A stretch of DNA of 32,882 bases from a virus. Its lineage: Duplodnaviria > Heunggongvirae > Uroviricota > Caudoviricetes. The stretch lies in the IMG/VR virus record IMGVR_UViG_637000265_000004; one strand, 5' to 3'. A program made the translations under genes and the position numbers. Every line of letters starts with the position of its first letter. Positions within the stretch are counted from its first letter, which is position 1. Positions 13,279 to 14,042 of this stretch are shown here, piece after piece. Below the pieces are notes generated by a model. The model had not been told where the DNA came from and ran no database searches. It saw only the letters and a list, made by a program, of their open reading frames with translations.

Positions 13279-13471
13279 AGGGACACAAAAAGTTTTCTCT
13301 TCTAGGACAACTAACCGTAACTTATCGCATCCTTTCAGGGGCGGGATGACCAATTACAGACACCAAGCGTTCTACTTAAAGTGAATGCTTCCTGTGTGCT
13401 CTGGGTCAGTCGATAAGTGAATAGCAATAAGACACAATCATCTTAATTATGGTCTCTAGTCCCTACAGGGG

Positions 13472-13563
13472 CTTAACTTAAAGTTAACTTAAAGACACAA
13501 TTAAAGATTAACTTATAGTATTACTTAAAGTTAACTTAAAGACACAATTAGAGATTAACTTTA
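13472..13563 (+). repeat. AT-rich region with two ~45-bp direct repeats rich in TTAAAG motifs
   Basis: ACTTAAAGTTAACTTAAAGACACAATTA(A/G)AGATTAACTT occurs twice. Confidence 0.7.
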
Positions 13564-13660
13564 AGTATTAAATAAAAGATTTAATTAAAGACCAATTAAA
13601 GATTAACTCTAAGGGAATACCTTAAGGGGTGATGATATTTATAATAATCAATCACCAAAC

Positions 13661-13800
13661 CTATAGGTCTTCTCTAGGGTCTCTCTATAGGTCTTCTCTA
13701 TGGTCTCTCTATAGGTCTCTCTAGGGTCTCCTCTAGGGTCTCCTCTAGGCATTACCCCCAGAAGCTAACTCTATGGCCCTCTATGGTCCTCTATGGCCCT
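13661..13800 (+). repeat. Array of ~10-11-bp short repeats (GGTCTCTCTATAG-like, then CTCTATGGCCC-like)
   Basis: About 9 consecutive degenerate GGTCT(C/T)(C/T)TCTA(T/G)(A/G) units then 3 CTCTATGG(C/T)CC units; inverted copies CCTAGAGAGACCCTAGAG at 13846..13885. Confidence 0.7.
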
Positions 13801-14042
13801 GTACGTCATTCTTTAGGATGCCCTGTAGTTTCGTATAGCCTGATGCCTAGAGAGACCCTAGAGTGGCTCCTAGAGAGACCCTCCCAGTAGCTCCGCACAG
13901 CTACATCGTCATCATCATAGTATTCAATCTCAAAGTCATTCTGTTTGCATCCTGTTGTCCTGCTGGTCTCCCTTCGCTTGGGGACTTTGAGTAGGTCAGT
14001 GGGGGGGCGACTTCAGGGTGCAAACAAAAAGGAAATCAAGCG

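Follow-up and report, generated by a model that had tools for sequence, protein, structure and literature searches.

What role do the AT-rich direct repeats and short-unit arrays play that occupy positions 13440-13885 of IMG/VR virus record IMGVR_UViG_637000265_000004? The record, a stretch of 32,882 nucleotides (nt) referred to below as the window, is classified with the Caudoviricetes, and an earlier note on the repeats had proposed iterons, packaging signals or concatemer-junction mimics. We see about an even chance that the repeats are part of the cis-acting control region of a small island integrated in a tRNA-Gly gene, and that this region is wired to phages of the T7 group and not to the host. 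The island itself would most likely be the remnant of a parasite that is switched on, replicated and spread by T7-type phages.

The repeats were first characterized by formal repeat analysis, including Tandem Repeats Finder (TRF). They were not a low-complexity artefact, and homologous blocks with differing copy numbers were present in every E. coli/Shigella-like relative examined. The following elements were located in and around the region:
13473..13608, + strand: AT-rich TTAAAG-type repeat block, 2.9 copies of a 47-nt unit (TRF, repeat finder)
13628..13657, + strand: AT-rich inverted repeat GGTGATGATATTTATAATAATCAATCACC
13661..13749, + strand: tandem array of ~7-8 GGTCTCTCTAKRG units with a period of 12 or 24
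13769..13800, + strand: CTCTATGGCC array, 3.2 copies
13846..13882, - strand: inverted copies of the 12-nt unit (CCTAGAGAGACCCT, twice)
13038..13060, - strand: pair of GGTCTCC-type units in opposite orientation to the main array, directly after the integrase stop codon
13326..13364, + strand: best-conserved non-coding block of the island family, CGCATCCTTTCAGGGGCGGGATGACCAATTACAGACACC, with a small stem CATCC/GGATG, between the promoters and the AT block

The repeat units described in the earlier note were all recovered. The two AT-rich direct repeats are 47-nt copies at 13476-13522 and 13523-13569 with 94% identity, and TRF placed them in a block of period 47 (2.9 copies, 86% matches) that contains an 11-nt sub-unit, TTAACTTAAAG, and has an A+T content of 82%, against 51% for the whole window. 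The tandem GGTCTCTCTAKRG units were returned with a period of 12 (7.1 copies, 84%) or of 24 (3.8 copies, 88%), and the three CTCTATGGCC units as 3.2 copies with 90% matches. The inverted copies are two exact occurrences of CCTAGAGAGACCCT (13846-13859 and 13869-13882), for which TRF gave an 11-nt unit; a 16-nt arm at 13848-13863 was fully (100%) complementary to 13672-13687 in the direct array, and three inverted CCTAGAGAGACCCT-type copies were present in locus L028. The units at 13038-13060, 94% complementary to 13721-13749, bracket the module of promoters and AT block on its left. The block at 13326-13364 was shared with Klebsiella and Edaphovirga, and in Proteus both sides of its stem change; as a hairpin this stem is weak (z = -0.8), and the hairpin at 13628-13657 was of modest stability (z = -1.4). 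Three array units (13661, 13685 and 13709) carry the core CTATAGG without the upstream promoter element, as had been described; full T7 promoters, absent from that description, lie 200-500 bp upstream of the array units on the same strand. The judgement that the repeats are not CRISPR-like also holds, as the units run head-to-tail with lengths of 10-13 nt or 47 nt and no spacers, against a criterion of 23-50-nt repeats with unique spacers of similar length.

DNA similar to the non-coding control region of the window island was found in ~230 of 5426 complete E. coli chromosomes (~4%), always beside an integrase at tRNA-Gly(CCC). Homologues of the window integrase with 65-88% identity define an island family in Klebsiella, Pectobacterium, Morganella, Enterobacter, Citrobacter, Buttiauxella, Kluyvera, Proteus, Edaphovirga, Lonsdalea and others. 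At ten loci the 3' end of tRNA-Gly(CCC) was repeated as attR 4.2-6.5 kb downstream and so delimits the islands. Their order is the integrase gene (int), an optional zinc-finger/DUF4145 gene that overlaps the int stop, 1-1.7 kb of non-coding DNA, and an operon that encodes a KilA-N or Rha DNA-binding protein, a ~65-aa protein, a DUF6971 protein and a 330-400-aa protein. By this comparison the window island is a truncated member of a 4.2-6.5 kb family integrated at tRNA-Gly in Enterobacterales. PADLOC (1e-102) identified the DUF4145 gene as PD-T7-4, an anti-T7 defence gene now named RAZR; it was present in many islands, though not in the window island or in the 4.2-kb E. coli islands, of which strains 2018-05-2CC and 14EC001 carry intact T7-type examples. 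PD-T7-4 has been reported to overlap integrase genes often (PMC9519451; PMC13017515). It was placed over the int stop and upstream of the phage promoters in:
L004, 7624-8256: RAZR/PD-T7-4
L012, 7616-8275: RAZR/PD-T7-4
L031, 5544-6203: RAZR/PD-T7-4

When the operon proteins were searched against Pfam, PHROGs, NCBIfam, PADLOC and PDB sequences, only KilA-N/Rha, DUF6971 and RAZR were matched. A megablast search with 13000-14200 gave zero matches in 50,697 phage and 72,556 plasmid records, and matches to phages in a sensitive blastn search were confined to the promoters; a phage or plasmid remnant, or a fossil phage end, was rejected on these grounds.

The non-coding DNA between the integrase gene and the operon of the window (13049-14042, 994 nt) held no credible open reading frame, and sigma-70-like promoters and intrinsic terminators were not above chance in it. 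Neither a DnaA box nor GATC was found there, and a host-type origin was rejected for this reason. Two features precede the repeats:
13061..13307, + strand: 120-bp tandem repeat, 2.1 copies (TRF)
13136-13158 and 13256-13278, + strand: two perfect 23-nt T7 class III promoters, TAATACGACTCACTATAGGGAGA (P1), one per 120-bp copy

No perfect T7 promoter was expected in shuffled sequence. Both P1 promoters point towards the repeats and, taken with their flanks, have T7 phiOR as the closest phage match. The 120-bp module occurs in 1, 2 or 3 copies in other Shigella-like copies of the island, and each of the nine E. coli/Shigella-like copies compared base by base (window included) carried 1-3 perfect T7 promoters. 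At the equivalent place, T7-group promoter-like sequences were found in 19 of 20 related islands of other genera, nearly all on the + strand; island L009 was the sole one without promoters. The island of Klebsiella pneumoniae ATCC 13883 has an exact K11 promoter (AATTAGGGCACACTATAGGGAGA), which matches 375 Klebsiella phage records, together with an exact T7 promoter and two K11-like ones. In the E. coli O26 island the promoter is of the ACTAAACTATCACTATAGGG type and exactly matches records of Kayfunavirus K1F/EcoDS1 phages; islands of Citrobacter, Buttiauxella and Enterobacter keep the ACTAAACTATCACTATAGGG core with <=2 upstream differences, and those of Proteus and Kluyvera have the promoter AATTAACCCACACTATAGGGAGA. 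Judged by these matches, the promoter type of an island is that of the T7-group phages of its own host.

Several islands have a second promoter (P2) downstream of the AT block. In E. coli relatives (L002 12721-12760; L001 12806-12830), an array of 1-3 copies of AATCAATACG runs into ACTTACTAATAGGAGACA. The AATCAATACG array multiplies the upstream half of a T7 promoter that resembles phi1.1A and has its core disrupted, and the whole segment may represent a degenerate second promoter. In the window it is deleted between two CAGTAG repeats.

A T7 origin is defined as a T7 promoter with AT-rich DNA after it (PMC8373140; bioRxiv 10.1101/2024.07.25.605042); no T7 origin can do without the promoter, and origin activity has been assigned to phi1.1A/B, phiOR and phi6.5 (PMC8373140). 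The best-supported role of the AT-rich block, and one that was not among the earlier proposals, is that of the AT-rich part of such an origin, dependent on a phage promoter; we would hold this as probable as not. For a word test, the 30 seven-mers present at least twice in 13473-13608 were counted over 1592 windows of the T7 genome. The top two were 301-450 (phiOL, 16 hits) and 5851-6000 (primary origin, 12 hits), whereas the remaining AT-rich T7 windows had 0-4 hits. In K11 the top three windows contained phi1.05, phiOR and phiOL, for the blocks of the window and of the Klebsiella island alike. Outside the promoters, the best local alignments to T7 fell at 5912-6005, at 414-477 and at the hairpin downstream of phiOR. 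A hairpin of this GGTGAT...ATCACC type with an AT loop lies ~100-130 nt downstream of phiOR in T7, K11 and EcoDS1, and its counterpart in the window is the AT-loop hairpin (13628-13657) downstream of the AT block. The suggestion in the earlier note that the repeats and T7-group genomes share a vocabulary is borne out.

The third component of an origin used by a phage RNA polymerase, besides a promoter aimed at it and a downstream AT-rich region, is a set of primase sites, and these were present too. The T7 primase recognizes 5'-(G/T)2GTC-3' (PMC12839067). In the 994 nt of non-coding DNA we counted 27 pentamers (G/T)(G/T)GTC, against 7.0 +/- 2.3 in shuffles, and 0 of 500 shuffles reached 27. 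Four of the GGTCTCTCTAKRG units bear the canonical pentamer (G/T)GGTC on the + strand. Across 14 islands, the sites left of the AT maximum numbered 95 on the - strand and 35 on the +, and those right of it 72 on the + strand and 45 on the -. This strand switch at the AT maximum had an odds ratio of 4.3 and ranked 1 among 350 control patterns. It can be seen in the arrays themselves: the left arrays of E. coli relatives, with as many as 13 copies of GATGACCATAGGC, have TGGTC on the - strand, and the right array of the window carries GGGTC/TGGTC on the + strand. As read from these counts, the orientation of the sites is as expected for the lagging-strand templates of forks that diverge from the block. 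Searches of the island proteins against Pfam, PHROG and NCBIfam returned no replication domains.

Several observations weigh against an origin of this kind and against a T7-dependent life cycle of the islands. The AT block begins ~195 nt (from the nearer promoter) to 315 nt past the P1 start sites, while in T7 the AT-rich DNA directly adjoins phi1.1B. Islands of the K1F type lack a strongly AT-rich block (maximum 61-65% A+T), and the word match of their blocks to EcoDS1 origins was not significant. Part of the word sharing could reflect the general vocabulary of the T7 group rather than origin function. The p-value of the strand switch is inflated, because related sequences and repeated units were counted; several unrelated motifs likewise switch strand, and at four E. 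coli loci the right-hand side had no preference for the + strand. The published flank criteria for primase sites (PMC12839067) applied to 5 of the 27 sites, 19% against a background of 12%, which is no enrichment. Hairpin thermodynamics across the region (z -0.7 to -2.6) were unremarkable when taken alone. The arrays are absent from most members of the family and therefore cannot be essential to its mechanism. Replication, excision and packaging are all deduced from sequence, and the 37 of 37 whole metagenome contigs checked were integrated forms: no circular or concatemeric island contig was among them, all 37 begin in the tRNA gene, and the 15 of 37 with a second att core run on into flanking host DNA.

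Much of the same evidence could be accommodated if the promoters served only as an expression switch for the downstream operon, as part of an anti-phage or hijacking programme, with the AT block and the arrays being transcribed spacer, silencing-prone AT-rich DNA and slippage products. The operon is without a host-type promoter and is placed after the phage promoters in every island, the anti-T7 gene PD-T7-4/RAZR lies beside int in many islands (PMC9519451; PMC13017515), the arrays differ in copy number from strain to strain and most of the family is without them, and P2, where it lies downstream of the block, could drive expression alone. Such a switch leaves unexplained the block words shared specifically with the origin regions of T7 and K11, the enrichment and strand switch of the primase sites, and the mimicry of both boundaries of the phage terminal repeat that is described below; this mimicry makes sense only if island DNA is processed like phage DNA. 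We regard a mere switch as unlikely, though worth keeping in view.

The arrays proved unstable. Among close relatives the promoter module was found in 1-3 copies, the 47-nt AT unit in ~1-4, GATGACCATAGGC in 0-13.5 and AATCAATACG in 1-3, and CTGTATGGCC, which is homologous to the CTCTATGGCC array, occurred in E. coli relatives in 0 or 2.5-4.5 copies. The GGTCTCTCTAKRG unit is present in ~8 copies in the window and in other Shigella-like copies and once in E. coli relatives; since the latter have a single unit, the array is a lineage-specific expansion. In most other genera there were no arrays at all. The short-unit arrays may modulate the mechanism, for example as clustered primase sites, or may be slippage products of phage-driven replication.

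This variation bears on the proposal that the repeats are iterons, by which the 12/24-nt repeats would bind an initiator, the island's own Rha/KilA-N protein, and the inverted copies would repress its gene, as in plasmids of the pSC101 or R6K type. The layout supports it: an AT-rich block, 3.8 copies of a 24-nt unit, and inverted copies 160-200 nt upstream of a gene for a DNA-binding protein. The covariation with the adjacent protein gene fails. The array is missing from an E. coli O26 island whose Rha-type gene is 84% identical in DNA across the leader and the 5' coding part, and in E. coli islands that encode a KilA-N-type protein a single unit of the repeat is accompanied by different arrays. 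Furthermore, a Rep-like domain was absent from all island proteins searched, and there is no DnaA box. An iteron-type origin is accordingly very doubtful, and a covariation of iteron and initiator was not supported, as the array is missing beside the same Rha-type gene.

The proposal of packaging signals or concatemer-junction mimics was right for the element and wrong for the place. A junction copy was found within the integrase gene and none within 13440-13885; ATCTGT(T/A), the end of the phage junction, is absent from 13049-14042. The recognized mimics are:
11959-11977, + strand: exact copy of the T7/K11 concatemer junction, the 19-mer CTCTGTGTCCCTATCTGTT, in the integrase linker
14198-14235 in L001: left-boundary mimic of the phage terminal repeat
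~12012-12045 in L004: left-boundary mimic
~11950-12060 in L012: left-boundary mimic
~12620-12730 in L031: left-boundary mimic

The 19-mer is identical to T7 149-167 and K11 170-188, with none expected by chance, and is made up of the final 12 nt of the terminal repeat (CTCTGTGTCCCT) and the ATCTGTT pause signal. ATCTGTT, which lies at the concatemer junction, is a class II signal for pausing and termination of T7 RNA polymerase and is strictly sequence-specific (bioRxiv 10.1101/2021.01.11.426313; 10.64898/2026.02.12.705533). In the integrase frame the copy reads S-V-S-L-S-V, and the surrounding linker is hypervariable. Its codons were nearly fixed, with CTA in 15 and TTA in 2 cases for Leu and TCT in 16 of 16 for Ser, compared to 3.4 and 2.6 codons in typical conserved Leu and Ser columns. 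The exact 19-mer was also present in islands of Klebsiella, Pectobacterium and strain RIT691. Islands of the K1F/EcoDS1 type have GTCTCCCTATCTGTA (...CCCTATCTGTA) instead, which ends like the annotated EcoDS1 junction ...TCTCTATCTGTA, and in the promoter-less island L009 the sequence is CTACCTGTT, with a broken pause signal. Every complete island except L020 had a single junction site, and its distance from attL was 600-700 nt.

The left boundary of the terminal repeat is mimicked ~230-290 nt before attR in complete islands. In L001 the sequence AAAATTTCCCACAAAAATCTCAGTGCCTA/TCTAACAGT, where the slash marks the boundary, aligned to T7 39749-39786, AAAATATACCATAAAAATCTGAGTGACTA/TCTCACAGT, with 84% identity over 38 nt (E = 3e-5), and a C5 run then follows at equal distance in both. 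K1F-type islands match the EcoDS1 left boundary, GACGATGAGTTTTG...TGAGACC..A/TCT..., then CCCCATAG.CCC....AG.CAGACCAAAGG. Both boundary mimics vary with the promoter type, being T7-like in islands with T7/K11 promoters and EcoDS1-like in those with K1F promoters. As far as these alignments go, the packaging mimic is real and located outside the repeats. After excision, the two boundary signals would be separated by 850-960 bp across attP, in the order and orientation of the phage, and we infer that they form a pseudo terminal repeat solely in the excised or concatemeric form. The lengths of the islands fall into classes of 4.2, 5.5 and 6.2-6.45 kb (L001, L002, L004, L007, L010-L013, L020, L021). 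By arithmetic, 9, 7 or 6 copies plus one pseudo-repeat amount to 37.9-39.6 kb, against 39.3-41.2 kb for helper genomes; this fit to T7-group genomes is only suggestive.

That the repeats themselves are the packaging signal, a counterpart of the T7 SRL/SRR arrays bound by the small terminase, appears improbable. In T7-group phages the terminal repeat is indeed accompanied by arrays of 7-13-nt units (CCTAAAG in T7; CAATAACCATAAGT in EcoDS1), TNAAG-type words of the AT block peak in the T7 SRL and right end (and also in the primary origin), and the island arrays start directly after int in an order, junction, arrays, phiOL, AT-rich DNA, that is the order of the T7 left end. In the comparison with the left-end arrays that had been suggested, however, the array motif CTA(N1-2)GG(T/C)C was not enriched at the ends of the T7 genome. 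The arrays are also not conserved across the family, and the recognizable packaging mimics are located elsewhere. To our knowledge, the function of SRL/SRR has itself not been established.

The source of the window is a Shigella-like chromosome, with an IpaH E3 ligase gene, IS1, IS3-family and IS66-family elements and a lambdoid prophage, in which the Q antiterminator (10155-10829) is followed by a tRNA cluster (Met, Arg, Thr, Gly; 11019-11329). The features from this cluster onwards are:
11255..11329, + strand: tRNA-Gly(UCC), the final tRNA of the prophage cluster (ARAGORN)
11307-11329, + strand: attL core of the island, the tRNA-Gly(UCC) 3' end, TTCGATTCCCGCTGCCCGCTCCA; its counterpart at tRNA-Gly(CCC) is duplicated as attR in relatives
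11405..11423, + strand: two TGTAACC motifs, candidate arm-type sites of the integrase
11444..13048, + strand: tyrosine integrase, 534 aa (Pfam Phage_integrase, 4e-18), the next gene after tRNA-Gly(UCC)
13941..14030, + strand: conserved leader with RNA structure (fold -43.4 kcal/mol, z = -2.6), preceding the first operon gene
14043..14197, + strand: 5' part of a gene for a Rha-family DNA-binding protein (Pfam Phage_pRha, 2.6e-9)
14448-14951: IS1 transposase

The window island sits in the prophage tRNA-Gly(UCC), and the usual target is the chromosomal tRNA-Gly(CCC); the two att cores differ at 3 of 23 positions. The TGTAACC motifs bear on a further explanation of the repeats, as arm-type sites of the integrase or as binding sites of an excisionase. 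The region does adjoin the integrase gene and holds direct and inverted copies of a short unit, but attL is 1.7-2.5 kb away and attR, in complete islands, >1 kb. A TGTAACC pair lies ~100 nt inside each end of complete islands, and none was found in the repeat region. Because these pairs take the arm-site role at both ends, ~100 nt from the core, where array units are absent, integrase arm sites were rejected, and we give this explanation hardly any weight.

The leader at 13941-14030 consists of a 13-bp outer helix with an inner hairpin and is kept in every island; RNAalifold on 10 islands predicted 31 pairs, 5 of them with compensatory changes. An Rfam search gave no credible match for the non-coding region, this leader included. 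The Rha-type gene is broken after 52 codons by IS1 (insertion at ~14198), and an intact homologue is found in E. coli O26. The same IS1 insertion (14198-14965) was seen in the other Shigella-like copies L024 and L028. Further IS copies of the IS1, IS3 and IS66 families lie at 15054-15872, 23408-24195, 24586-27225 and 31532-32350 of the window. At 29448-29654, 60-bp tandem repeats (2.3-2.9 copies) occur within the gene of an IpaH-type NEL E3 ligase (28287-29942, minus strand) and probably encode leucine-rich repeat units. A search of the window for attR, the right end of the island, the left-boundary mimic and RAZR found none of them. As attR and the right end are lacking, the window island is a truncated remnant, IS-damaged and without its operon. 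Upon T7 infection this copy alone would at most be transcribed and perhaps locally replicated.

For the islands, the following sequence of events is proposed. In a cell infected by a T7-type phage, the phage RNA polymerase would start at the perfect T7 promoters (P1) and transcribe rightwards into the 82% A+T TTAAAG block, where, as at T7 origins, the transcript would prime T7 DNA polymerase in easily melted DNA. The displaced + strand would expose the GGTCTCTCTAKRG array with its (G/T)GGTC sites, at which the gp4 primase-helicase would begin lagging-strand and leftward synthesis. The AT-rich direct repeats would thus be the core of the origin and the short-unit arrays its fast-evolving flanks, adding primase sites, with the inverted copies bracketing the module. 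The phage replisome would replicate the island with no replication protein encoded by the island. In complete islands, excision would join the left-boundary mimic near attR to the junction copy in int, the product being the 850-960 bp pseudo terminal repeat across attP. Since the two boundaries are split across the attachment site, a packageable junction would be assembled only after excision. The phage terminase would then cut and package island concatemers, with predicted ends of ...CTA/TCTAACAGT and ...GTGTCCCT/, the slash marking the cut.

The module was compared to known systems. It resembles T7 origins in its tandem T7 promoters that fire into an AT-rich block of TTAAAG/TTTAAG-type words, in the nearby primase sites, in the lack of host origin features and in the GGTGAT...ATCACC-type AT-loop hairpin as at phiOR. 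The T7 primary origin consists of phi1.1A/phi1.1B and a 61-bp AT-rich region, and phiOL and phiOR are secondary origins. Unlike these, the island module sits in a bacterial chromosome, its block of 136 nt is ~2x that of T7, is a 47-nt tandem repeat and lies ~195-315 nt from the promoter starts; it is flanked by arrays of variable number, and beyond promoters and short words there was no match to phage sequence. Iteron origins of plasmids (pSC101, R6K, F, P1) share with it an AT-rich region, direct repeats spaced by 1-2 helical turns and inverted copies upstream of a gene for a DNA-binding protein; they differ in that the islands have neither a Rep-type protein nor a DnaA box and that the repeats do not covary with the adjacent protein.

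The closest functional analogue is the engineered T7 phagemid. T7 replicates, packages and transduces plasmids that combine its origin with a pac site and a terminal repeat (PMC13236587, after Chung and Hinkle 1990). The island family carries all three corresponding kinds of element, a promoter with AT-rich DNA, the junction/pause site and both terminal-repeat boundaries. The islands differ in being natural and integrative, in a pseudo terminal repeat of ~0.9 kb against 160-180 bp that is split by integration and complete only after excision, and in cut-site bases TCTAAYAG against TCTCACAG; the window copy, in addition, is without the right half.

The closest natural analogue is PICMI, a satellite of virulent vibriophages that is ~6 kb in size, has a gene that overlaps int and enters the capsid as a concatemer that fills it (PMC10803314). 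The islands are likewise small, in many cases have a gene that overlaps the end of int (RAZR), lack genes for capsid remodelling or a terminase, and would depend on a virulent phage; their lengths would fill a T7-size genome as 6, 7 or 9 copies. The PICMI family is defined by the core genes int, iolg, alpA and prim and by integration next to fis. Profile searches found neither alpA nor a primase gene in the islands, which are integrated at tRNA-Gly and not beside fis, and for these reasons they are not members of PICMI. The islands also carry promoters of phage RNA polymerases and sequence-specific junction mimics, while cos/pac sites of the helper phage were not identifiable to the authors of the PICMI study (PMC10803314). 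Satellite behaviour is a prediction for the islands, in contrast to PICMI. Hallmarks of PICI and P4-like satellites (alpA, pri-rep, terS and capsid redirection; psu, delta and sid) had no Pfam, PHROG or NCBIfam match among the island proteins.

Taken together, it is slightly more probable than its opposite that the islands are minimal satellites of virulent phages of the T7 group in Enterobacterales and make up a family not described before. Such satellites would copy the phage promoters, the promoter-plus-AT-rich origin with arrays of primase sites and both boundaries of the terminal repeat, each matched to the local helper genus (T7, K11 and K1F types). No account of T7 promoters in these islands, of their junction mimics or of satellite behaviour was found in the literature searched. 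For T7, the textbook case of a strictly virulent phage, a natural satellite is not known to us. If the proposal is true, a parasite could hijack a virulent phage by the mimicry of DNA signals alone, without replication or packaging genes of its own, and engineered T7 phagemids and orthogonal T7 replicons would have an equivalent in nature. This would be relevant to phage therapy and to T7 expression hosts, as ~4% of complete E. coli genomes carry similar DNA. Virulent T7-like phages would also gain a route for moving chromosomal genes among Enterobacterales, for example RAZR/PD-T7-4, whose overlap with integrase genes had been noted earlier and left unexplained.

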